A stretch of DNA of 29,115 bases from a virus (taxonomy: Duplodnaviria > Caudoviricetes), in IMG/VR virus record IMGVR_UViG_3300017752_004479, positions 1 through 29,115 of that record, one strand, 5' to 3'. Position numbers and translations under genes: made by a program. A model generated the notes under the pieces. It was given only the letters and a program-made list of their open reading frames with translations. It ran no database searches and was not told where the DNA came from. Of the stretch, positions 8,906 to 28,762 are shown in pieces; position 1 is the stretch's first letter; every line of letters begins with the position of its first letter.

Positions 8906-10483
8906 ATGAAACAAACACCAAATCAATTATTCGAACAACTTTCAAAGGAATTTAGTCCTAAAAAAGATAAAGAATTAATCAACGAGGAATTAGGTCAAGT
9001 AATAACATTAAAACCTATTAATACTATTGAAGCAAGCCCAAAAGAACCATTTTGGACTAAATTTGAAAACTTTCTTGCTGAAGGTGGGGCATTAGAACCA
9101 ATTGTTAATACCGAAGAAAAAACTAATACTTTAGAAGCAGAGGAAAAAGTAAAAGCTGATTCTAAATTAAAATACGAAATGGACAGTAAATTAGCGGGTT
9201 CATATAAAATTTCTGATGGTGTAGAAAACATTGCTTCTCATAACTATGATTATGATACTACTGTAGAAAATATTAATAATGTAAATGGAGAAGAATTATT
9301 AAAAGGAGTCCAGTTAGAAATTAAGTATAATGAAGAATTATCTCTTGATGAAGCTAAAGAACTTGTTATCAAAAACTTAGCTAAAAATCCTTTACATTAT
9401 GTAGAAGAAGGTCAATTTGGTGTTAAAGGTTTAGGATACACAGAAGGTAAACAACAACAAAATGATGGTGAAACTTATGGTGGAAGTGGATTTAGTGAAA
9501 AATTAAAAGATGGTGGTGATTCTATGGAATTAGTAAAAGAATCATTAGGCCAAGTAGTAACTTCAGGAAATCCAAATTCATTAGCAGCTCAATCAGGAAA
9601 TATTATTCGTCAAATGATGGCTGAAAAAGAAGAAGCTCCACTACCAATGGATGAAATGGAAGATGAAGGTACAGCTGTATCTTATTCTGATACTACTATG
9701 GAAGCTAAAGGAAAAGATCATGATGGTGACGGTGATGTAGATTCGGACGATTATATGGCAGCTAGAGATAAAGCTATTAAAGCAGCTAAAGCTAAAAAAC
9801 CTAAAAAAGAATCAATCGATTCTAAATTAGCTGAAATTGGCAAGGCAGGTGATATTACTAAAATGGAGGCTCAGTTAGAATTTTTATCAAATTATATATC
9901 TGAAAAATCAGATAGAGTAAATTCAATATCCGAAGATGAAAATTTATCTGAATTAGTTGATAAAAAGAAAATGAAAGATATGCAGAGAGAAATCAAGCTT
10001 TTAGAAAAAAGAAAAGGCAAGATGGAAAAAATGTATGAAAAAATGTGTGGTAAAAAATACAAAAAAGCTGAAATGGTAGACGAAATGGATGCTGTAAGCT
10101 GGAATGAAAAAAATAACCCAACTAGAGGTGCTGCTGGAGAAAGAGATCCTAAAAAAGTAGGTCAATCAACATCTGCTTATGCTATTAACGAAATGGCAGC
10201 CGGTGGTTTAAAAGAAAAAAGTGCTGGTAAAAAACTTTTTGCAGCTTTTAAAAAAGATGGTTTAAAACCTAATTATATAGCAGATGTAAGAAAAGTATCT
10301 AGTGATGGAGAAGCTAAAGATATGGTACACATTGAACCAGGAGAAGGTTCGGTAGAGGTATCATCTTCTTCTAATCAAGATAAAATTGCTCAAGCCATTA
10401 AATCCGCAGGATTTAATATTTCAAAAGAAGAAGATAATGTAGGTAACTATAAATTATCAGTATTTACTATAGATATTAAATAA
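8906..10483 (+). CDS. Putative internal head/prohead core protein (acidic; DUF5661-like segment, EF-hand-like loop)
   Basis: 525 aa, Glu-rich; KGVQLE...EAKELVIKNLAKNPLHY segment; DHDGDGDVDSDDY; directly upstream of the protease. Confidence 0.55.
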   Translation: MKQTPNQLFEQLSKEFSPKKDKELINEELGQVITLKPINTIEASPKEPFWTKFENFLAEGGALEPIVNTEEKTNTLEAEEKVKADSKLKYEMDSKLAGSYKISDGVENIASHNYDYDTTVENINNVNGEELLKGVQLEIKYNEELSLDEAKELVIKNLAKNPLHYVEEGQFGVKGLGYTEGKQQQNDGETYGGSGFSEKLKDGGDSMELVKESLGQVVTSGNPNSLAAQSGNIIRQMMAEKEEAPLPMDEMEDEGTAVSYSDTTMEAKGKDHDGDGDVDSDDYMAARDKAIKAAKAKKPKKESIDSKLAEIGKAGDITKMEAQLEFLSNYISEKSDRVNSISEDENLSELVDKKKMKDMQREIKLLEKRKGKMEKMYEKMCGKKYKKAEMVDEMDAVSWNEKNNPTRGAAGERDPKKVGQSTSAYAINEMAAGGLKEKSAGKKLFAAFKKDGLKPNYIADVRKVSSDGEAKDMVHIEPGEGSVEVSSSSNQDKIAQAIKSAGFNISKEEDNVGNYKLSVFTIDIK

Positions 10484-11216: not shown

Positions 11217-12347
11217 ATGGCAAACAATGATTTGTTAAAAGAAGCAATTGCCGATGCTAAAGCTGTTAAAGAAACTGCTATCGCAAATGCTAAACTCGCT
11301 CTTGAGGAAGCTTTTACACCTCATCTGAAATCTATGCTTTCAGCAAAATTAGAAGAAATGGACAAAGAAGATGTTGACGAAGGATACGACGAAGACATGA
11401 AAGAAGAAATGGACTCTAAAGATGATATGAAAGAAGGAGATGATGAAATGTATGAAGAAAAAGAAGAGCTTGACGAGATTAACCTAGACGAATTACTTGC
11501 TGAACTTGAATTGGATGAAGACAAACGTACAGATGCTGAACAAGAAGGCTATAAGGACGGATTCGAAGACGCTAAAGACGACATCGAAAAAGAACTTAAA
11601 TCTATGAAAGTATCAGAAGAAGTATCCGAAGAAATTACTGAAGATGCTAGAACTGATGCTGAAGAAGAAGGCTACAAAGACGGTATGAAGGACGAAAAAG
11701 AAGACATGGAAGATGATATGGACGACGAGGAAATTGACCTTGAAGACATGTCAGAAGATGACTTAAAAGGATTCATTGAGGATGTTATTAAAGATTTAGT
11801 AGCAGACGGAACAATTGAAGCAGGCGAAGACTTCGAAGAGGAAGATATGGAAATGATGGATGTGGAAGATGTTGAAGATGTAGATGTTGATGTAGAAATC
11901 GACGAAGCAGCTCACATGGATAAAGGTGAAACTGGTGTTGGAAACGAAGACGGAGACAGAGATGACTCTGAAGTCGAAAAAGAAACCGAAAAAATGAGAT
12001 TCAAAGAAGCACTTGATGAAATCAATGAGCTTAAAAAAGAATTGAATGAAGTTAACCTTTTAAATGCTAAACTTCTTTACACAAACAAAGTTTTTAAATC
12101 TAAAAACTTAACTGAAGACAAAAAAGTTAGAGTGCTTAAAGCATTTGACAAAGCGTCAACAGTAAAAGAAGCTAAAGTTATTTTTGAAACATTAAACGAA
12201 GGTTTAGTATCAAAAACAGAAGCAACTGCAAGACCAAAAGGAATTGCATCTAAAGCTACTGGAACAATAACTGAAGCTAAAAAACAACCAATAATTGAAT
12301 CCAATGATGTTTACAATAGAATGCGTAAACTTGCTGGATTAATTTAA
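11217..12347 (+). CDS. Prohead scaffolding/core protein (T4 gp22 equivalent)
   Basis: Very acidic coiled-coil protein between protease and capsid; LLKEAIADAKAVKETA N-terminus, LNEVNLLNAKLLYTNK, C-terminal RMRKLAGL. Confidence 0.88.
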   Translation: MANNDLLKEAIADAKAVKETAIANAKLALEEAFTPHLKSMLSAKLEEMDKEDVDEGYDEDMKEEMDSKDDMKEGDDEMYEEKEELDEINLDELLAELELDEDKRTDAEQEGYKDGFEDAKDDIEKELKSMKVSEEVSEEITEDARTDAEEEGYKDGMKDEKEDMEDDMDDEEIDLEDMSEDDLKGFIEDVIKDLVADGTIEAGEDFEEEDMEMMDVEDVEDVDVDVEIDEAAHMDKGETGVGNEDGDRDDSEVEKETEKMRFKEALDEINELKKELNEVNLLNAKLLYTNKVFKSKNLTEDKKVRVLKAFDKASTVKEAKVIFETLNEGLVSKTEATARPKGIASKATGTITEAKKQPIIESNDVYNRMRKLAGLI

Positions 12348-15593: not shown

Positions 15594-15893
15594 ATGGCAT
15601 TAACATTTAGAACAGGATCAGGAGGAAAAGGTTCCGCTTTAACAATTGAAGAACTAGATAATAATTTTAGACATTTTTCTGGTTCCCACACAGTAACTGG
15701 AACTTTAACTATTGACTATGATAATGTAGGGGGTTACGCTCTATATATAACTAGCTCAGATTCTTATCAAACCCCGGTACTAATCGAAAGTTTACCTACT
15801 ACAGAACCTTTGGTAACTGGTTCATTATGGCTATCGGGTAGTGGAGCAGGTAATGCTTCAGGATCTCAATATTTAATGGTATTTAATGGGTAA
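15594..15893 (+). CDS. Short fibre/decoration protein with KGSALTIEELDNNF anchor domain
   Basis: N-terminal ~32 aa nearly identical to the next gene; C-terminal LPTTEP..GSLW motif typical of fibre ends. Confidence 0.65.
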   Translation: MALTFRTGSGGKGSALTIEELDNNFRHFSGSHTVTGTLTIDYDNVGGYALYITSSDSYQTPVLIESLPTTEPLVTGSLWLSGSGAGNASGSQYLMVFNG

Positions 15894-15895
15894 CT

Positions 15896-16948
15896 ATGGG
15901 ATTAACATTTAGAACAGGTTCAGGCGGCAAAGGATCCGCTCTAACAATAGAAGAATTAGATAATAATTTTAGATACTTTACAGGATCACATCCTATAACT
16001 GGATCTTTTACTATATCCGGCTCGTTAGATGTAGAGGGAAATATAACAGCTTCTGGTAATATAAGTGCCAGTAAATTAACTGTTAATACAGCCTCTATAA
16101 GTAAAATTGTAGATGGTCCAGACGGTAATGCTAATGCTGGAATTACAATAATTACTTCTGATAATACAAGTTTAGAGTTTTCGGATACTATTGTAGGAAG
16201 CACTGAAGAGTATGATTTAACTCTAACTTCTGGGGGTGCTTTAAAAATTAATAATGCTGGTTCAAAATTCTCGGGTTCAGCAGGTAATATAACAGCATCA
16301 GCTAATATAAGTGCAAGTGGAAATATAATCTCAAATTTATCACTTGTTAACACCTCAACATTAGACCCAACAGTAGATGATGATGCAAAACTAACAGTAT
16401 TTGGTAATGCTATATTTGGAGAAGGTGCAAACGGAAAAGTAATATTATCTGATGATTATCTTGGTGGTGAATTAGGAGTAATGACAGTTAGTGACCATAC
16501 AATAGCAGCTAAATTTACAGGAGAAGGTTATAGATATGGAGGATTATATGGAGCGGAGCCTTTAAGAATAGCAGATAATGGAAGAGTGGGTATAGGTGTA
16601 GCTGTCCCTGATGAAAAATTAGATATAAATGGAAATGTTAAAATTGGAGAAGGTACTGTTGGCTATGTAATAGTAGGCGATGATCATATTGGCGGTGAAT
16701 TAGGTTTAGTAGATTTCAATACTGATAATTTTATAGCTGTAGTAAAGAGTGATGGTTCTTTTCAATATGGTGGTACGTCTGATAATGCTCTAACTATATC
16801 TTCAAGTAATGTAAGTGCTAGTGGTAACATTACTGGTCAAACCGGTTCTTTTGTTGGTGGTTTAGTATTAACATCCCCTAATGGAACTGAATATGTATTT
16901 ACAACAAACAATGATGGACACTTATCATTAACAGGTAGTGCAGTATAA
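15896..16948 (+). CDS. Fibre protein (head/neck/tail fibre-like)
   Basis: Same anchor N-terminus; GNITASGNISAS repeats; GRVGIGVAVPDEKLDINGN; C-terminal LVLTSPNGTEY. Confidence 0.75.
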   Translation: MGLTFRTGSGGKGSALTIEELDNNFRYFTGSHPITGSFTISGSLDVEGNITASGNISASKLTVNTASISKIVDGPDGNANAGITIITSDNTSLEFSDTIVGSTEEYDLTLTSGGALKINNAGSKFSGSAGNITASANISASGNIISNLSLVNTSTLDPTVDDDAKLTVFGNAIFGEGANGKVILSDDYLGGELGVMTVSDHTIAAKFTGEGYRYGGLYGAEPLRIADNGRVGIGVAVPDEKLDINGNVKIGEGTVGYVIVGDDHIGGELGLVDFNTDNFIAVVKSDGSFQYGGTSDNALTISSSNVSASGNITGQTGSFVGGLVLTSPNGTEYVFTTNNDGHLSLTGSAV

Positions 16949-19764: not shown

Positions 19765-21069
19765 ATGGCTAATAACGTTAGATTTGTAGACTCCCTTAAA
19801 GCAGGACAATATAAAGGCAATCCAGGTCCACAAGGACCAGTTGGGCCTTCAGGTTCAGCTTTTCCTTTTACGGGTTCGGCTGGAATAACAGGTAGTTTAG
19901 ATTTAACTGGTAGTTTTAACGCATCAGGTAGTACACATGCAATTACAGGACAAATAACTTTTGGAGGAGTCAATGTAACATCCTTAAACTCAGGCGGAGG
20001 TCTAAACCAACTATCTCTTAATGTAGCAGATTCCAATGATAGTAACAACCCAGATAATTATTTACTTCATTTAGATAATCTTGGAGATGGAATGTTTTAT
20101 GCTAAAAGTTTAGAATTAGGAGATGGTGAAGGAGTTTTCAATGGAACAAACCTTCAGATTGATTCTCCAAATAATCAATTTTTATTTGAAAATGGTAATG
20201 TAGGGATTGGAACTGGTAGTCCTAGTGAAAAATTACAAGTTGAAGGAAATATAAGTGCAAGTGGATTTATTCAAAGTAATCAAATAAATAGTAATCAAAT
20301 AACTGGAAGTAATTTAGCTATAGGTACAGACTATAATTCCCTTCCTAATGACCCCGGATATACAGGTATAATTTCAAGATTTGATGGTGGTGTATTTTTT
20401 AATATTAAAGAAGAAGCATTAAAGACTTTTGGTATTAATAGTGCAGCAGTAGGAGACGGCATTTTACAAATTGATACTGATCCAAACCATTTTTTACTAG
20501 ACCCGACAGGTAATGTTGAGTTAAAAGTAGGATTAGGAGTTGTATCTCCCTCAGCTTCTTTAGATATAGTAGGAAATATCCAAGCTTCGAGTCATATAAC
20601 AGCATCTGGTAATATCAGTGCAAGTGGAGATCTTTCTGCTGCTAACATAAATGTCCCAACTAATGGTACTACATCATTTGGCTCAAACGTAACTTTTACA
20701 GCAAACCAGTCTACAACTTTTGCTTCTAATACAATTGCTAGTGGATACCCACTAAATATAATTCCAAGCAATGGTGTTTTTATTAAATCCGCATTACTGT
20801 TTGGTGAAAATATTGCAGCGTTTAATAATAATGGTTCTGTTGATTTATATTATGATAACTCAAAGAAATTTGAAACTACTACAGCTGGTATAAATGTAAC
20901 AGGAAATATTACAGCTTCGGCTAATATAAGTGGAAGTGGTACTGGTAGTTTAGGTAGTTTATTAGTTGACGGCTCTTCTATCGATTTTACTAATATTCCA
21001 ATTTCTGATCCTGGGGTTGCTGGAAGATTATGGAGAGATGGAACAGATTTAAAAATATCTGTGGGGTAA
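19765..21069 (+). CDS. Fibre protein with short collagen-like segment
   Basis: GNPGPQGPVGPSG; FPFTGSAGITGSL; GNVGIGTGSPSEKLQVEGN; ITASGNISASG; GSVDLYYDNSKKFETT; C-terminal PISDPGVAGRLWRDG. Confidence 0.8.
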   Translation: MANNVRFVDSLKAGQYKGNPGPQGPVGPSGSAFPFTGSAGITGSLDLTGSFNASGSTHAITGQITFGGVNVTSLNSGGGLNQLSLNVADSNDSNNPDNYLLHLDNLGDGMFYAKSLELGDGEGVFNGTNLQIDSPNNQFLFENGNVGIGTGSPSEKLQVEGNISASGFIQSNQINSNQITGSNLAIGTDYNSLPNDPGYTGIISRFDGGVFFNIKEEALKTFGINSAAVGDGILQIDTDPNHFLLDPTGNVELKVGLGVVSPSASLDIVGNIQASSHITASGNISASGDLSAANINVPTNGTTSFGSNVTFTANQSTTFASNTIASGYPLNIIPSNGVFIKSALLFGENIAAFNNNGSVDLYYDNSKKFETTTAGINVTGNITASANISGSGTGSLGSLLVDGSSIDFTNIPISDPGVAGRLWRDGTDLKISVG

Positions 21070-21107
21070 TAAATAATAAATAATAAATAATTTTAGAATA
21101 TTCTAAA
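21067..21107. repeat. (TAATAAA)x3.5 tandem repeat plus 16-bp palindrome
   Basis: TAATAAA units at 21067-21091; TTTAGAATATTCTAAA at 21092-21107. Confidence 0.6.
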
Positions 21108-21124
21108 TTTTGCTTTTAAATTAC

Positions 21125-21138
21125 ATATTTATAATAAA
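21125..21138 (+). promoter_or_regulatory. Putative phage late promoter ATATTTATAATAAA
   Basis: Exact 14-mer. Confidence 0.7.
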
Positions 21139-21150
21139 TAAAAATAACAA

Positions 21151-21465
21151 ATGAAACATATTTGGAAAATATACAATCTTGAAAGAATAAAGGCAGATGG
21201 TTTTGTTACTGATGTAACATATGCCTGTGAGTCATCAGATAATAATATATCTACTAGATTAATTGGAGATTTAACTTTATCAGGTTCAACAGAAGAACCA
21301 GGATTTGTCCCTTACGAAAATCTTACTGAAAGTGAGGTTTTAGGTTGGGTAAATGCTAGTATAGATGAGGCTGCTGTCGAAACAGCAAATTCTGCTTCAA
21401 TTGCTGCTATGGCTATAGCTAGAGCGGCTATTACAAGTTCTAATGGGATACCTTGGCTAGAATAA
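21151..21465 (+). CDS. Small fibre-associated protein (WKIxxLER...FVPYENLTExEVLGWV family)
   Basis: Motif pattern typical of small proteins encoded next to phage fibres; ends GIPW. Confidence 0.65.
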   Translation: MKHIWKIYNLERIKADGFVTDVTYACESSDNNISTRLIGDLTLSGSTEEPGFVPYENLTESEVLGWVNASIDEAAVETANSASIAAMAIARAAITSSNGIPWLE

Positions 21466-21499
21466 AAATTAAAGATTTTTTGATGCTCTTTTAAAATTT

Positions 21500-21530
21500 T
21501 TTGGGAGTACTAAATTATTTTTGTATATTA
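21500..21530 (+). promoter_or_regulatory. Putative host-type (early/middle) promoter TTTGG-N18-GTATATTA
   Basis: Matches 911-941 in both boxes and spacing; 20 nt before the glycosyltransferase ATG; no late motif in this gap. Confidence 0.55.
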
Positions 21531-21550
21531 GTTATAGTAAAAAGTTATAG

Positions 21551-22429
21551 ATGAATATTTTATTCCAAATAGATGGGGGCTTAGGCAAATCAATCATGGC
21601 AACTGCAATGGTTAAGGTTATAAAAAAACGTTATAAAAACGCTAACCTTATAGTCGTTACTGCTTACCCCGATGTGTTTTTAAATAATCCTAGTGTTAGT
21701 AAAGTTTATAATACTAATAACATAAATGGTTTTTATTTAAAATATGTTAAGGATCAAAAATGTAAAATTTTTGTTGAAGATCCTTATAGAAATGAGGATT
21801 TTATTCTAGATAAACCCATAAAATTACTTAAAACTTGGTGTGAATTATATGGTTTACGTTACAATAACGAACAACCCGAACTTCACCTTACCCAACCAGA
21901 ATTAGATTATTTTAAACCGTATTATACTACAGATAAACCAATATTAGCTATTCAAACTAATGGAGGACCAGCAGGTATAGGATACCAATATGCTTGGACA
22001 AGAGATATCCCAGAACCAACCATTTTAGAGTTAATAAACCATTATAAGGATGATTATACTATAATTCATATAAAAAGAGAAGATCAAAAAATATATCCTG
22101 ATACAATGCAAGCACTGGATGGTTATAGAAGTATAGCTATATTACTTCTTTTATCTTCAAAAAGATTATTAATGGATAGCTTTGCACAACATATGGCTGC
22201 AGCTCTAAATAAAAAATCTACAGTTTGTTGGGTTAGCACAAAACCAGAAATATTTGGGTATAAAATACATGATAATATAAAATCAAATCCATTTACTAAA
22301 GAACCCTCTTTACATGAAGCAGCTTATCAACCATTTGCTTTATCGCAAGATATACATTCAATACCTTATAATGATTTAAAAGAAATATTTAGTACGAATA
22401 AAATTATAGAATCGATAAATAATCAATAA
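21551..22429 (+). CDS. Glycosyltransferase, GT-B fold, GT9/heptosyltransferase-like
   Basis: GGLGKSIMATAMVKVIKKRY..ANLIV...PDVFLNNP N-terminus; MDSFAQHMAAALNKKSTVCW matches the GT9 DSG..HLAAA motif. Confidence 0.8.
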   Translation: MNILFQIDGGLGKSIMATAMVKVIKKRYKNANLIVVTAYPDVFLNNPSVSKVYNTNNINGFYLKYVKDQKCKIFVEDPYRNEDFILDKPIKLLKTWCELYGLRYNNEQPELHLTQPELDYFKPYYTTDKPILAIQTNGGPAGIGYQYAWTRDIPEPTILELINHYKDDYTIIHIKREDQKIYPDTMQALDGYRSIAILLLLSSKRLLMDSFAQHMAAALNKKSTVCWVSTKPEIFGYKIHDNIKSNPFTKEPSLHEAAYQPFALSQDIHSIPYNDLKEIFSTNKIIESINNQ

Positions 22430-23247
22430 TGGAAGAAATATTTTTTCAATCTTCATTACCTAGAGCAGGTAGTACTTTATTGCAAAATATATTGGGTCAA
22501 AATCCTGATTTTTATGTAACCCCCACATCAGGCGTATTAGAATTATTATATGCAGCTAGACAAAATTATACAAATGATAATGCCTTTAGAGCTCAGGATT
22601 CTAAACTAATGAAAAAGGGATGGCTTAATTTTTGCAATCAAGGTTTAGAAGGATTTTATAAAGGCATAACACATAAAAAATTTATTGTAGATAAAAGTAG
22701 AGGATGGGGTATACATTATAATTTTTTAAATTCATTTTATTCAAATCCAAAAATAGTTTGTATGGTAAGAGATTTAAGATCTATTTATACATCTATGGAA
22801 AAAAATTTTAGAAAAAACCCCGAAAAAGATGATGGGACTGTAAATTGGAGTAAAATGAAAGGTACTACAACTGCTAAAAGAATTGATATTTGGGCTGACT
22901 CACCTCCAATAGGAATTGCAATTGAAAGACTTCAACAAATAATTAATGAAGGGATAGATAAAAAAATTCATTTTCTCCGTTTTGAAGATCTAACCTCAAA
23001 TCCACAAGAAGAATTAAATAAAATTTATAATTTTTTCCAAATAAAAGAATATAGTCATGATTTTGACAATGTTAAACAATTAACACAAGAAGATGATACA
23101 GTACATGGTATGTTTGGGGATCATAAAATTAAAAAACAAGTAAAACCTATACCCCTTACGTATAATGAAATTTTAGGACCACAACTTTCACAAAACATAG
23201 TTAATACTTATCCCTGGTTTTATGAATATTTTAATTACAAAATATGA
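22429..23247 (+). CDS. PAPS-dependent sulfotransferase
   Basis: 5'-PSB loop SLPRAGSTLLQNILGQNP; VDKSR; 3'-PB MVRDLRSIYTS; LRFEDLTSNP. Confidence 0.92.
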   Translation: MEEIFFQSSLPRAGSTLLQNILGQNPDFYVTPTSGVLELLYAARQNYTNDNAFRAQDSKLMKKGWLNFCNQGLEGFYKGITHKKFIVDKSRGWGIHYNFLNSFYSNPKIVCMVRDLRSIYTSMEKNFRKNPEKDDGTVNWSKMKGTTTAKRIDIWADSPPIGIAIERLQQIINEGIDKKIHFLRFEDLTSNPQEELNKIYNFFQIKEYSHDFDNVKQLTQEDDTVHGMFGDHKIKKQVKPIPLTYNEILGPQLSQNIVNTYPWFYEYFNYKI

Positions 23248-23714
23248 TATACTGGTTTACAGGACAGCCTGGTTCAGGCAAAACAGTTTTAGCAAATCTA
23301 CTCAAAGAAAAGTACTTACCTCATGCTTATCGTATAGATGGAGATGAAATGAGAGAATTATTTACAAATAAAGATTACTCTATTAAAGGTAGAATAACAA
23401 ATGTAGATGCAGCACAAAAAATTGCACATTATTTACATAATCAAGGTAAAGATGTAATTGTATCTTTAGTTTCTCCTTATTTAGACCAAAGAAAAGAATT
23501 TAAGGACATAATGGAGTGGCAATTACAAGAAATTTTTGTATATTATGATGTAGATAAAGGGCTTAGAGGTAGAGAAAATTATCATGTTATGCAATTCCAA
23601 AAACCGGATTTAGATTACATTGATATTGATACTACAAAACAAACCCCAGAAGAATCATTAAAGGTAATAGCTAAAAAATCTGGTTTAGATATGATATATT
23701 CTAAAGGATTATGA
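23244..23714 (+). CDS. cysC: Adenylyl-sulfate (APS) kinase
   Basis: IYWFTGQPGSGKT, IDGDEMR, GR..N, VIVSLVSPY...R; compact version with a shortened lid region. Confidence 0.85.
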   Translation: MIYWFTGQPGSGKTVLANLLKEKYLPHAYRIDGDEMRELFTNKDYSIKGRITNVDAAQKIAHYLHNQGKDVIVSLVSPYLDQRKEFKDIMEWQLQEIFVYYDVDKGLRGRENYHVMQFQKPDLDYIDIDTTKQTPEESLKVIAKKSGLDMIYSKGL

Positions 23715-24070
23715 GTAAAAAATATTCAATGTTTATTGGAAGGTGGCAACCCTTACATCAAGGTCATCTTTGGTTAATCAATCAAAGATTACAAGAAGGA
23801 AAGAATGTATGTTTAGCAATTAGAGATGTTGAACTAAATGAAAATCAACCTTGGACCGCTAAAGAAATAGAAAAGATGGTTCATGAGGGTGAGTTAAAAG
23901 GATTGATACAAGATGGTAGAGTTATTACAACAATAATACCTGATATTGAATCAATTAATTATGGTAGAGGTGTTGGGTATGAAGTTATTGAACATATACC
24001 ACCAACGGAAATAGGTGAAATATCAGCTACAAAAATTAGAGAACAAATGAGAAAAGATGGTAAGTTATAA
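23711..24070 (+). CDS. Minimal HxGH nucleotidyltransferase (cytidylyltransferase-like superfamily)
   Basis: FIGRWQPLHQGH and C-terminal ISATKIR motifs; 119 aa; ATGA-coupled to cysC. Confidence 0.85.
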   Translation: MSKKYSMFIGRWQPLHQGHLWLINQRLQEGKNVCLAIRDVELNENQPWTAKEIEKMVHEGELKGLIQDGRVITTIIPDIESINYGRGVGYEVIEHIPPTEIGEISATKIREQMRKDGKL

Positions 24071-24269
24071 AAGACACATTGCAAAAACAATATCATGGAG
24101 AATAATAGGAACAATAGACACAGTAATTATTTCAGGACTTATAACGGGTTCTTGGGGAGCAGGGTTAGCTATAGGAGGGGTAGAAATTATCTCCAAAATG
24201 GTGCTTTACTTTCTACACGAAAGAATGTGGTATAAATTTAGTAAATTTGGGGTAAATAAAAATAATTAA
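24057..24269 (+). CDS. DUF2061-like small membrane protein
   Basis: KRHIAKTISWRIIGTIDT...K..LYFLHERMW signature; two hydrophobic helices. Confidence 0.85.
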   Translation: MVSYKRHIAKTISWRIIGTIDTVIISGLITGSWGAGLAIGGVEIISKMVLYFLHERMWYKFSKFGVNKNN

Positions 24270-24283
24270 ATATTTATAATAAA
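24270..24283 (+). promoter_or_regulatory. Putative phage late promoter ATATTTATAATAAA
   Basis: Exact 14-mer; marks the return to late transcription after the cassette. Confidence 0.7.
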
Positions 24284-24294
24284 ATAAAAATAAA

Positions 24295-24555
24295 ATGAGT
24301 AAAAAAGAAATTATTAAGTTATCAGAAGAGGAATTAACAATTCTTAAAGGTTATCAAAAAAAACAAAATCAAATTACTTTTAATTTAGGTAATGTTGATA
24401 TACAAAAAGCTATTCTTGAGGGACAAAGAAGTCAAATATTAGAAAATTTAGCTAATTTACAAGAAGAATCTAATAAAACAGCTAAGAAACTTCAAGATAA
24501 ATATGGTGATGGGAATATTGATTTAGAAACTGGTGAATTTACTATTGTAGAATAA
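24295..24555 (+). CDS. Small coiled-coil protein (KYGDGNIDLETGEF C-terminus), possible assembly chaperone
   Basis: 86 aa helical hairpin with C-terminal beta-hairpin motif; own late motif. Confidence 0.6.
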   Translation: MSKKEIIKLSEEELTILKGYQKKQNQITFNLGNVDIQKAILEGQRSQILENLANLQEESNKTAKKLQDKYGDGNIDLETGEFTIVE

Positions 24556-24586
24556 TTTTAAAGTTTTAACTATAATATATTTGTTT

Positions 24587-24600
24587 ATATTTATAATAAA
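24587..24600 (+). promoter_or_regulatory. Putative phage late promoter ATATTTATAATAAA
   Basis: Exact 14-mer before sheath 1. Confidence 0.7.
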
Positions 24601-24609
24601 ATATTATAG

Positions 24610-26973
24610 ATGGCAGAAACATTAATATCCCCAGGTGTATTATCCTCAGAAAATGATCAATCCTTTGTTACCTTAAGACCCCAAGATAGAGGAGCAGCGA
24701 TTATAGGACCAACAGTTTTAGGCCCAGTAGAAAAACCTACTTTAGTTGGGTCGTTTAGTGCTTATCAGGCAATTTTTGGTGGTGCTTTAGAAAGTGGTTC
24801 TAATGAATACACTTATCTTACCTCAATAGCGGCTAATAATTACTTTCAGAACGGTGGAACATCTTTATTAGTAACTCGTGTAGTTTCAGGTTCATTTACC
24901 TCAGCAACAAGTTCATTTGTAAATTCAGTAGATGGTGAACCTTTATTAATTGGTGCGGATGCTGCATTATTTGCTAATGGAGTATTTGCAGGGTCAAATT
25001 TTACTGGATCAGTTGATGGAGGAACATCTTACAGAATCACTAGTGCAGTATTTACAACAAATGGTAGTGGAACCGGAGGTGTAATTAATTTAGATATTGA
25101 TACAGGAGTTCCTAATGGGGTAGGTGTAACTACAGCGGGAACAGGGTATGAAGTAGGAGATACATTAACATTTTCTACAAATGATAATTATGGTTCACCA
25201 TTAATTTCAACTTCAATTCTTAATGCTGTTACAATAAACACCTTTAATACAAATACAGATCCATCTACTACTTTTGATGGAACTTATAGATTTCAAAGTG
25301 GTAGTACTGCTGCTACAGATTTAATAGTAAGTAATGGAGGTACTGCAACAGGAGTAGAACTTGAGGTAACTATTTTAAATGGAGCAATTACTAATGTAGT
25401 ACCATATGTTGCTGGATCTGGTGAAGGTGAAGGATCAATAGTAGGTACAACATTTGAAATTTCAGAAGATGCTATAAATGCTCAAACTGGAGACGCAAAC
25501 GGAACAGGTAAGCTTACATTAGTGATTACAGAAGCTGAACTAAGCGCAGGAACTTTTACAATAACTTTAGAAGCAGAAAATCTAGAATCTTCACTATCAT
25601 CATTGGAGTTAGAAACAATTTCTGAAGGAGAAGTAATGAATACTGGAACAAGCGAATTATCAAATGGAGCTTTAGCTAGTGGGTCTGCTCAAAATTTAAG
25701 GTGGGAAATTACATCAGCTAATACATCATCAGGAGTATTTTCACTTGCAGTAAGAAGAGGAGATGATACTAATAATAATAAAATAATTTTAGAAACTTTT
25801 AATAATATTTCATTAGATCCCTTTGCCCCAAATTATATTTCAAAAGCAATTGGTGATATTTCAACCCAATTAGTAACAGAAGGAGTTGATACATTTTTAC
25901 AAGAAAGTGGTTCTTTTCCTCAAATATCAAACTATGTAAGAGTTAAATCTGTAAGAAAAACTCCATATTATTTTAATAATGATGGATCAGCAAAAGATCA
26001 ATTTACAGGTAGCCTACCATCAGTATCATCAGGTTCATTTGGTGGTGCTGTAGGATCAAATACTCCAGCTGATAGAGCAGCTAATTTTTACCAAAATATT
26101 AATGATTCAGATACACAAGGATTAAAAGGATTTGATTATAATGATGCAATCTCTTTATTATCAAATAAAGAAAATTATCAATATAACATAATATCTGTTC
26201 CCGGTTTATCGGTTCAATACCAAAATGCCCAAGTTACAAGTATAATAAATAACTCTATTTCTAGAGGTGATAATATAGCTGTAGTAGATTTAGTAGGATA
26301 TAACCAATCTATTAATACAGTAATTAATAAAGCTTCTGGAATAGATAATAGCTATGCTTCTACCTATTGGCCATGGTTACAAACAATTGATCCTAATTCA
26401 GGACAATTAGTGTTTATACCAGCTTCAACATTTATACCAGGGGCATATGTCTTTACAGATAAGTCGGCAGGTTCTTGGTTTGCTCCTGCGGGAAAAATTA
26501 GAGGGAAAATGGGGCAAGTTGTTAGAGCTGAAAGAAAATTATCATCTACAAACAAAGATACTTTGTATGAGGCAAATGTTAATCCTATAACTACTATGCC
26601 TAATAAAGATGTAATTATATATGGACAAAAAACACTACAAAAGGCAGCTTCTGCATTAGACAGAGTAAACGTGCGTAGATTATTGATAATATTAAAAGAT
26701 TACATATCCCAAATATCAGATACTTTAGTATTTGAACAAAATACAATCTCAACACGAAATAATTTTTTAACTCAAGTTAATCCTTATTTAGAAAATATTA
26801 AACAAAAACAGGGACTATATGATTTTAAAGTGATAATGGATGAAACAAATAACACCCCTGATGTTATAGATAGAAACGAGTTAGTAGGACAAATATTTCT
26901 AAAACCAACAAAAACAATTGAATTTGTAATTCTTGATTTTAACATACTACCTACGGGAGCAATTTTTCCTTAA
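24610..26973 (+). CDS. Tail sheath protein paralogue 1 (T4 gp18-like) with ~230-aa insertion
   Basis: LISPGV, YFQNGG, YWPW, WFAPAG, GQKTL, LDRVNVRRLL, VFEQN, DETNNTPDVIDRNEL motifs. Confidence 0.95.
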   Translation: MAETLISPGVLSSENDQSFVTLRPQDRGAAIIGPTVLGPVEKPTLVGSFSAYQAIFGGALESGSNEYTYLTSIAANNYFQNGGTSLLVTRVVSGSFTSATSSFVNSVDGEPLLIGADAALFANGVFAGSNFTGSVDGGTSYRITSAVFTTNGSGTGGVINLDIDTGVPNGVGVTTAGTGYEVGDTLTFSTNDNYGSPLISTSILNAVTINTFNTNTDPSTTFDGTYRFQSGSTAATDLIVSNGGTATGVELEVTILNGAITNVVPYVAGSGEGEGSIVGTTFEISEDAINAQTGDANGTGKLTLVITEAELSAGTFTITLEAENLESSLSSLELETISEGEVMNTGTSELSNGALASGSAQNLRWEITSANTSSGVFSLAVRRGDDTNNNKIILETFNNISLDPFAPNYISKAIGDISTQLVTEGVDTFLQESGSFPQISNYVRVKSVRKTPYYFNNDGSAKDQFTGSLPSVSSGSFGGAVGSNTPADRAANFYQNINDSDTQGLKGFDYNDAISLLSNKENYQYNIISVPGLSVQYQNAQVTSIINNSISRGDNIAVVDLVGYNQSINTVINKASGIDNSYASTYWPWLQTIDPNSGQLVFIPASTFIPGAYVFTDKSAGSWFAPAGKIRGKMGQVVRAERKLSSTNKDTLYEANVNPITTMPNKDVIIYGQKTLQKAASALDRVNVRRLLIILKDYISQISDTLVFEQNTISTRNNFLTQVNPYLENIKQKQGLYDFKVIMDETNNTPDVIDRNELVGQIFLKPTKTIEFVILDFNILPTGAIFP

Positions 26974-27049: not shown

Positions 27050-28762
27050 ATGGCAGAAACATTAATATCTCCAGGAGTATTAGCAAGAGAAAACGATCAA
27101 TCTTTTGTTACATCCCAACCAGCTGAAAGAGGTGCGGCAATTATAGGCCCAACTGTATTAGGTCCTGTTGAAAGACCTACATTAATTAGTTCATTTAGTT
27201 CTTATCAAGCAATATTTGGTGGGACATTAGAAAGTGGTTCTGGTGAATTTACGTACCTTACTTCTATTGCAGCCAATCAATATTTCCAAAATGGAGGAAC
27301 GTCTTTATTAGTAACTAGAGTAACTTCAGGTTCATTTACCGCAGCAACAAGTTCAGCAATTAATAATTTTGATGCAAATAATGCTTTTGAATTAGAAACT
27401 ATTTCTGAGGGTGAAATAATGAATACTGGAGTTGATGAAATATCAAATGGAGCTTTAGAAACTGGTTCTTCTTATAATGTTAGATGGGAAGTAGCTGCAG
27501 TTAATACATCTTCTGGTGTATTTAGTTTATTAGTTAGAAGAGGTGATGATACTAATAGTAATAAAGTAGTATTAGAATCTTATAATAATATTTCATTAGA
27601 TCCCTTTGCTTCAAATTATATTTCTAGAGCAATTGGTGATATTTCTACTACTTTAGTAACAGAAGGAGCTGATACATTTTTACAAGAAAGTGGTTCTTTT
27701 CCTAATATTTCTAACTATGTAAGAGTTAAAGAAGTTAAAACCCCAACTCCTTACTATTTCAATAATGACGGATCAGCAAAAGACCAATTTACAGGGAGCA
27801 TGCCAATAATTGGTTCTGGTTCTTTTAATGGAGCAGATGGTTCAAATATCCCAACAGGTAGAGTAGCTAATTTTTACCAAAACATTAATGCTACAGATAC
27901 ACAAGGGTTAGTTGGAGATGATTATGATAATGCAATAGCATTATTAGCAAATCAAGATGATTATCAATTCAATGTAATATCAGTACCAGGTTTATCAAAC
28001 CAACACCAAGCATCTCAAATTACTAGTGTAATGAATAACTCAATTTCACGAGGTGATAGTATTGCTGTAATTGATTTAGTTGGATATAACCAACTAATTG
28101 GAACAGTAACAAACCAAGCAGCTGGGATTGATAACAGTTACACAGCTACATATTGGCCTTGGTTACAAACCGTAGATCCAAGTTCAGGTATGTTAGTATA
28201 TATACCAACTTCAACATTTATACCAGGAGTATATGCGTTTACAGATGCTTCAAGTGATCCATGGTTTGCACCAGCAGGTATTACTAGAGGTGGAATGGGA
28301 CAGGTTGTTAGAGCTGAAAGAAAATTAACTTCTACAAATAGAGATACTTTATATGAAGCAAATGTAAACCCAATTGCAACATTCCCATCACAAGGAGTTG
28401 TAGTATTTGGTCAGAAAACATTACAAAAGGCAGCTTCTGCATTAGACAGAGTAAATGTACGTAGATTGTTAATTACACTTAAGAGTTTTATCTCTCAAAT
28501 TGCAGATAATTTAGTATTTGAACAAAATACAATTGCAACAAGACAAAACTTTTTAACACAAGTAAATCCATATTTGGAAAGTGTTCAACAAAGACAAGGA
28601 TTATATGCCTTTAAGGTAGTAATGGATGAAAGCAATAATACACCAGATGTTATAGATAGAAACGAGTTAGTAGGACAAATTTTCTTACAACCAACTAGAA
28701 CAGCTGAATTTATATTACTAGATTTCAATGTATTACCAACTGGAGCAACATTCCCAGCATAA
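27050..28762 (+). CDS. Tail sheath protein paralogue 2 (T4 gp18-like, canonical)
   Basis: Same sheath motifs with canonical PWFAPAGITRG, VNPIATFP, QPTRTAEFI; adjacent to tail tube. Confidence 0.97.
   Translation: MAETLISPGVLARENDQSFVTSQPAERGAAIIGPTVLGPVERPTLISSFSSYQAIFGGTLESGSGEFTYLTSIAANQYFQNGGTSLLVTRVTSGSFTAATSSAINNFDANNAFELETISEGEIMNTGVDEISNGALETGSSYNVRWEVAAVNTSSGVFSLLVRRGDDTNSNKVVLESYNNISLDPFASNYISRAIGDISTTLVTEGADTFLQESGSFPNISNYVRVKEVKTPTPYYFNNDGSAKDQFTGSMPIIGSGSFNGADGSNIPTGRVANFYQNINATDTQGLVGDDYDNAIALLANQDDYQFNVISVPGLSNQHQASQITSVMNNSISRGDSIAVIDLVGYNQLIGTVTNQAAGIDNSYTATYWPWLQTVDPSSGMLVYIPTSTFIPGVYAFTDASSDPWFAPAGITRGGMGQVVRAERKLTSTNRDTLYEANVNPIATFPSQGVVVFGQKTLQKAASALDRVNVRRLLITLKSFISQIADNLVFEQNTIATRQNFLTQVNPYLESVQQRQGLYAFKVVMDESNNTPDVIDRNELVGQIFLQPTRTAEFILLDFNVLPTGATFPA

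Follow-up and report, generated by a model that had tools for sequence, protein, structure and literature searches.

A 119-amino-acid HxGH nucleotidyltransferase encoded by a marine-type phage is predicted, with good confidence, to belong to an undescribed, non-orthologous family of ATP sulfurylases. Its gene lies at 23711..24070 (+ strand) of the window, that is, the whole stretch of DNA analysed, a linear T4-like virus record of 29,115 bases that is about 20% complete. The original prediction for this gene held that its context suggests APS supply by a minimal adenylyltransferase, and such a predicted activity agrees with the linkage of the family to CysC and APS reductase and with its alternation with cysDN in two phyla.

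The window encodes a major head protein and tail sheath proteins according to family matches, and terminase-like and portal-like ORFs as judged by eye. The tail sheath genes are tandem paralogues (24610-26973 and 27050-28762; 72% identical over 490 aa), the first with an insertion of ~220 aa. Two acidic scaffold-like proteins (11217-12347 and 8906-10483), one of them with a repeated RTDAE.EGY.DG unit, are encoded ahead of the major head gene. The adjacent genes 15594-15893 and 15896-16948 have a common N-terminus of 40 residues (82% identity), and several fibre-like ORFs near them contain many GNI(S/T)ASG-type repeats.

The HxGH gene is part of a cassette of tightly overlapping genes in the order GT9-like, sulfotransferase, cysC, HxGH and DUF2061, all on the + strand. 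The 292-aa GT9-like glycosyltransferase (21551..22429), which has no Pfam match, should be taken as a lead from an Atlas structure match to a GT9 cluster (TM 0.80). The 272-aa sulfotransferase (22429..23247; PF13469, E 4.6e-17; PF00685, E 2.4e-12) is likely a consumer of PAPS. The following ORF (23244..23714) encodes a short CysC-like APS kinase of 156 aa (Pfam PF01583, APS_kinase, 61.9 bits, E 9e-17) with a P-loop, a DGD..R motif and a shortened lid; its best PDB sequence matches are APS kinases only, and its scores lie under the NCBIfam CysC cut-offs (59.8 versus 138.7 and 59.5 versus 127 bits). ATGA overlaps flank this ORF at both ends, which bears out the coupling of the HxGH gene to APS kinase noted at the outset. 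The last gene, for a small DUF2061 membrane protein of 70 aa (24057..24269; PF09834, E 1e-21), starts 14 nt before the end of the HxGH ORF and had been overlooked in the original prediction. As that prediction also stated, neither sat nor cysD/cysN is seen in the cassette; a six-frame search of the window, about 20% of a complete genome, with home-made queries and no positive control gave no match to Sat or CysD. A promoter and terminator scan of 21000-24700 revealed no excess over shuffled sequences (28 versus 25.1).

Translation of 23711-24070 yields the 119-aa product (P0001) described before, with GRWQPLHQGH at residues 10-19 and ISATKIR at residues 104-110. The strand opposite the ORF is full of stops. 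Because the codon changes with respect to five relatives are mostly synonymous (40-48 synonymous, 11-17 non-synonymous), the ORF is a real gene. The protein matches Pfam CTP_transf_like with 26.5 bits (cut-off 21) and shows the traits of the HxGH superfamily, namely HxGH after strand 1, a Rossmann-like fold and a C-terminal SxT..R helix. Its AlphaFold model is confident (pLDDT 91.9). A fold search of viral models with the protein gave nothing at E 0.001 or better, and an Atlas search returned unnamed or cytidylyltransferase-like clusters only; database names of its relatives are "cytidyltransferase-like" or NMNAT. Among the scored candidates of similar length, 7999 of 8000 pass E 0.001, and in the full library the family comprises 1067 clusters at 50% identity, the weakest of which may include NMNATs. 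An alignment of 50 diverse members shows near-invariance of G10, R11, H16, G18, H19, R38, P47, P77, G85, R86, V88, G89, Y90, S105, T107, I109 and R110; they include the four conserved arginines of the family (R11, R38, R86 and R110), and Q13 is also listed among the conserved residues. The window protein groups with members from Marinisomatota, to which it is up to 85% identical. The Nitrospirales and Flavobacteriales proteins, 48-50% identical to it and with the same invariant residues, form one sub-clade with a support of 98. The tree was a quick one, unresolved at 51 of its 99 branches, and only this sub-clade is taken from it. Four longer matches (P0140, P0144, P0151 and P0193) carry endonuclease-like segments ahead of the HxGH domain (NUMOD3 in P0151, PF02945 in P0193), some of which may be read-through gene calls.

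By sequence and fold the protein is a cut-down NMN adenylyltransferase and not a Sat. Foldseek placed NMNATs first, and VIA-align gave Z-scores of 10.1 for PPAT, 10.1 over 111 residues for the M. jannaschii NMNAT (1f9a) and 9.9 for NadM, compared with 8.0 for Thermus Sat 1v47 (rmsd 3.4, 115 residues aligned). The structural comparison with Sat and NMNAT proposed earlier thus supports the common superfamily fold of HxGH and HxxH enzymes, including Sat, and places NMNAT closer. Profile comparison by hhalign gave a probability of 98.6 with archaeal NMNAT; with six Sat domains the alignment was confined to the C-terminal 41 columns (probability 79), and an origin of the protein as a trimmed Sat was rejected on that account. 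The protein nevertheless stands outside the Sat, CysD, NMNAT and PPAT families. It scores far below the NMNAT family cut-offs (40 versus 127 bits for NF002243, 25.6 versus 181 for TIGR01527), misses those of PPAT (CoaD; 15-16 versus 103-104 bits), and has no CysD family match in NCBIfam and no PF01747 match at E 0.1.

With the archaeal and NadM-type NMNATs (PDB 1ej2, 1f9a, 2qjt, 2qjo) the protein has in common the fold and the GRxQPxHxGH, NP[FW], PDI and SxT..R motifs; R11, H16, H19 and R136 of 1ej2 align with its R11, H16, H19 and R110. It differs in being ~50 residues shorter, with two helices (~17 and ~8 residues) missing, in reading RD for GS and YGR for SGN, so that R38 and R86 replace G/S and N, and in having sulfate-pathway rather than NAD genes as neighbours. 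The helical segment after strand 3 of NMNAT is deleted and the SGN loop is replaced by YGR; both segments are presumably part of the NMN pocket.

Sat (PF01747; PDB 1v47, 1j70, 2gks) shares with the protein the HxxH superfamily fold, the HXXH motif, represented by H16-x-G-H19, and the predicted reaction. Partners are also alike, since Sat and the Sat-CysC or PAPS synthase fusions likewise go with CysC, APS reductase and CysQ, and both proteins occur fused to CysC in either order. In contrast to the ~390 residues of Sat, whose PF01747 domain of ~210 aa sits in a multi-domain chain, the HxGH protein has 119 aa and lacks the N-terminal domain, GxxKxxD and an intact VGRDHAG. In passages on the Sat motifs, QXRN is given as the phosphosulfate-binding motif before HXXH (PMC3779200, PMC6607087), and HXXH (PMC6607087) and VGRDHAG, the GRD loop (PMC3779200, PMC6607087), are defined. 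QXRN is absent from the HxGH protein, which reads GR[WYF]Q in the same register. VGRDHAG is only echoed, as GRGVG in the window protein; in this register GR[G/D/K]VG[YW] is conserved, with D87 in 9 of the 50 diverse members, and hhalign leaves the segment unaligned with Sat and matches it to SGN..AGY of NMNAT minus a helix. CysD/CysN (and NodP/NodQ) show no sequence match to the HxGH protein, a single small chain that has no GTPase subunit, and share with it operon slots behind APS reductase (Nitrospirales) and behind cysC (Flavobacteriales). PHROG 10255 ("kinase"; for example phages Salvo, Sano and DLP6) has a profile that spans the kinase and then the HxGH domain, and its members are annotated as kinase or hypothetical only.

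The HxGH gene is closely tied to genes for APS-consuming enzymes. Among the best 80 of 453 viral loci, which were analysed for same-strand ORFs and, being 64-100% identical to the query, are not independent, 76 contain cysC (adjacent in 53, one gene away in 20, further in 3); in the other four the upstream DNA ends within 261 nt. Seven loci from a viral scan with one divergent fusion as query all had the kinase fused or adjacent. Of the best 80 of 252 cellular loci, 75 tie the HxGH gene to CysC or APS reductase: cysC is adjacent in 45, fused in 22 and elsewhere in the locus in 3, and the gene is directly behind APS reductase in 5. The genomes of the five remaining loci all have cysC elsewhere, beside cysQ in three, and three of the five show neither CysD nor Sat. 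Metagenome loci obtained with a Nitrospirales query (best 80 of 514) comprised 68 with cysC, 4 with APS reductase, 7 without upstream DNA and 1 other. The cellular partner is often a full-length CysC (~240 bits), and CysQ and sulfotransferases are among the cellular neighbours. The association of homologues with cysC and sulfotransferases, which the original prediction had made a test of its reading, holds for cysC (76/80 viral and 70/80 cellular loci) and extends to a sulfotransferase in only 20/80 viral and 35/80 cellular loci as detected with home-made profiles. In five long viral records chosen for having no sulfotransferase nearby, one had a PF13469 match anywhere. The suggested search for CysC fusions retrieved both orders: by motif, the 120 listed of 212 longer homologues are 68 kinase-HxGH, 19 HxGH-kinase and 33 proteins without a kinase motif, and kinase-HxGH fusions are present in the cultured phages Salvo and DLP6.

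Several further genes accompany the family. DUF2061 is found in 63 of the best 80 viral loci and is fused to an HxGH domain in P0174; DUF2061-like ORFs, read from their N-termini, precede cysC-cysD-cysN in two Flavobacteriales loci (L241, L245). DUF2061 therefore accompanies sulfate activation in both forms, HxGH and cysD-cysN, and may be a small protein that transports sulfate or PAPS or acts as an anchor. A PNKP-like HAD phosphatase of 112 aa (for example L028:4667-5005 and L024:4240-5001), a candidate pyrophosphatase or PAP phosphatase, is encoded between cysC and HxGH in 21 viral loci; two more have it fused to CysC. In phage Salvo, a 192-aa ORF (L081:4233-4811) two genes before the kinase-HxGH fusion has no Pfam match and an N-terminus that by eye resembles a sulfotransferase PAPS-binding loop.

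In cells the HxGH gene alternates with cysDN in lineages of two phyla, within Nitrospirales and Flavobacteriales. Five of 61 Nitrospirales genomes carry the family, each in the order sulfite reductase, APS reductase, HxGH (preceded by rrf2 in L139 and L154); the APS-type reductase next to HxGH scores 272 bits against TIGR02055 (cut-off 235). CysD is present in 0/5 carriers versus 54/56 non-carriers, and the two non-carriers without CysD are also without a full APS reductase. Judged from coordinates, cysD lies within ~2 kb downstream of APS reductase in 54/54 non-carriers, directly after it or after a trpD-like gene. Strict complementarity of Sat/CysD and HxGH was not found in Nitrospirales, as all five carriers hold a Sat-CysC fusion elsewhere. 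The motifs of these fusions are intact in one genome (G002), changed once in another (G003) and changed several times in three (G001, G004, G005); this graded loss of QXRN, HXXH and GRD (L164-L168) suggests, from sequence, that the fusions are decaying to kinase-only proteins.

Within one Flavobacteriales family, the best 30 of 53 cysC matches are followed by HxGH in 13 and by cysD in 17 cases, and by both in none. The 13 HxGH carriers have no CysD or Sat genome-wide, and the HxGH family was found in 0/5 tested cysD genomes, searched without a positive genome among them but with a profile that found members elsewhere. In 121 Marinisomatota genomes, cysC is present in 77 and the HxGH family in 3, all already-known carriers; among the 77, Sat or CysD occurs in 0/3 carriers versus 70/74 non-carriers. 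A further 50 carrier genomes, drawn from the other 75 cellular loci (contigs of at least 15 kb, one per genome, two left out), include 5 with CysD and 4 with Sat, which makes 8 with at least one of the two and 42 with neither. On this evidence the family accompanies genes of APS consumption and complements Sat/CysD, with the Nitrospirales Sat-CysC fusions and 8 of the 50 carriers as exceptions. The genomes are often incomplete, and many are small MAGs or SAGs for which no completeness is stated; since completeness is not shown and the carriers are related, these counts mark a few events rather than many, and Fisher values overstate independence because carriers cluster by descent.

APS is the one metabolite consumed by both CysC and APS reductase. 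As its synthesis is moreover missing in most carriers, we infer that the HxGH protein would join the AMP of ATP to sulfate, yielding APS and PPi. A small anionic acceptor would fit the protein because its ATP site is intact, its acceptor side is shortened and two extra arginines are conserved. ATP would be bound by H16, H19, R11 and the SxT..R110 helix, as in the superfamily, and sulfate would be held by R38 and R86, both specific to the family, at the position that NMN takes in NMNAT. Coupling to CysC, which makes PAPS, would pull the unfavourable synthesis of APS, as would pyrophosphate hydrolysis. The phage sulfotransferase would then spend PAPS on a sugar or other acceptor, perhaps a sugar made by the GT9-like enzyme, and in the Nitrospirales relatives APS would feed APS reductase and sulfite reductase instead. 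In phages without a sulfotransferase nearby, the PAPS consumer may be divergent or encoded by the host, or the module may have a different purpose.

Evidence against an ATP sulfurylase comes from the absent Sat motifs, from NMNAT and PPAT as best matches, from the Sat-CysC fusions retained in Nitrospirales, from the 8/50 carriers with Sat or CysD and from the minority of loci that have a sulfotransferase nearby. Incomplete genomes and the shared descent of carriers also count against it, as does the fact that the Nitrospirales and Flavobacteriales proteins make up a single sub-clade with just 48-50% identity to the window protein. Some of these points could be accommodated by a role in the APS/PAPS pathway without sulfate adenylation, be it APS + PPi -> ATP, recycling of APS or PAP, or partnership, accessory or regulatory, with APS-consuming enzymes. 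The link to both CysC and APS reductase, the persistence of Sat-CysC in the five Nitrospirales carriers (one with intact motifs) and the missing sulfate-binding motif of Sat are all compatible with such a role. It is nonetheless unlikely, as the HxGH and SxT..R elements of the ATP site are conserved in full, an accessory function leaves unexplained why Sat/CysD are mostly absent in carriers and present in non-carriers, and APS + PPi -> ATP is the reverse direction of the same enzyme activity. Somewhat less probable still is adenylation of another oxyanion or phosphorylated acceptor (phosphonate, sulfonate, selenate) that a CysC-like kinase would then 3'-phosphorylate in the manner of CoaD/CoaE. 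The sub-threshold scores of the short window kinase, the absence of a sulfotransferase within 5 kb in most phage loci and the tie of PPAT for best fold match would suit this idea, which is at odds with the full-length CysC or, in a sulfite-reductase operon, the APS reductase that often partners the protein in cells, and with the CysQ and sulfotransferases nearby.

A role in phage NAD+ salvage, with the protein acting as NMN adenylyltransferase, is very improbable despite its best sequence and fold matches and the common GRxQPxHxGH and NP[FW] motifs: the low family score, the two missing helices and the GS to RD and SGN to YGR exchanges speak against it, as do the lack of any NAD-salvage gene among the annotated neighbour clusters and a separate full NMNAT in one carrier archaeon. 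The activation of a sugar- or polyol-phosphate donor (NDP-sugar or CDP-glycerol type) for the GT9-like glycosyltransferase, which the original prediction had offered as an alternative, fares worst and is highly improbable. The cytidylyltransferase-like Pfam label and the GT9-like gene in the cassette speak for it, but with home-made profiles a GT9-like gene was detected near HxGH in just 18/80 viral and 3/80 cellular loci, far fewer than have cysC nearby, and in the fold search cytidylyltransferases and HldC come out lower, at Z 6.7-8.5.

Sulfate adenylation thus being the preferred reading, we consider it likely that the HxGH proteins are a third ATP sulfurylase family that arose independently from NMNAT by helix deletion and the gain of two arginines, and that works as a single chain of 110-160 residues without a GTPase subunit. 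On the same reading, marine and freshwater phages would spread it as a self-contained PAPS module, it would have taken over from cysDN in lineages of Nitrospirota and Bacteroidota, and it would make up for the missing step in streamlined Marinisomatota, Omnitrophota and marine archaea. The predicted reaction is itself a known one, and Sat belongs to the same superfamily; what is probably new is a predicted, non-orthologous third enzyme for it. Generally recognised families of ATP sulfurylase number two, Sat and CysDN. No description of the HxGH family was found in the literature searched, which took in few subscription papers and no supplements. Viral cysC has been described as an auxiliary gene common in marine and freshwater samples (bioRxiv 2021.01.05.425418), and the passages on viral cysC in that preprint (12 of 21) give no role to the HxGH domain.

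If the prediction is true, this third ATP sulfurylase would be only some third as large as Sat. It would make available a very small enzyme with which to regenerate PAPS, and would be a clear-cut example of a switch of substrate within the HxGH superfamily. It would supply the missing first step in many genomes that have cysC or APS reductase but no source of APS, and viral cysC would be half of a complete PAPS synthase rather than a lone auxiliary gene.
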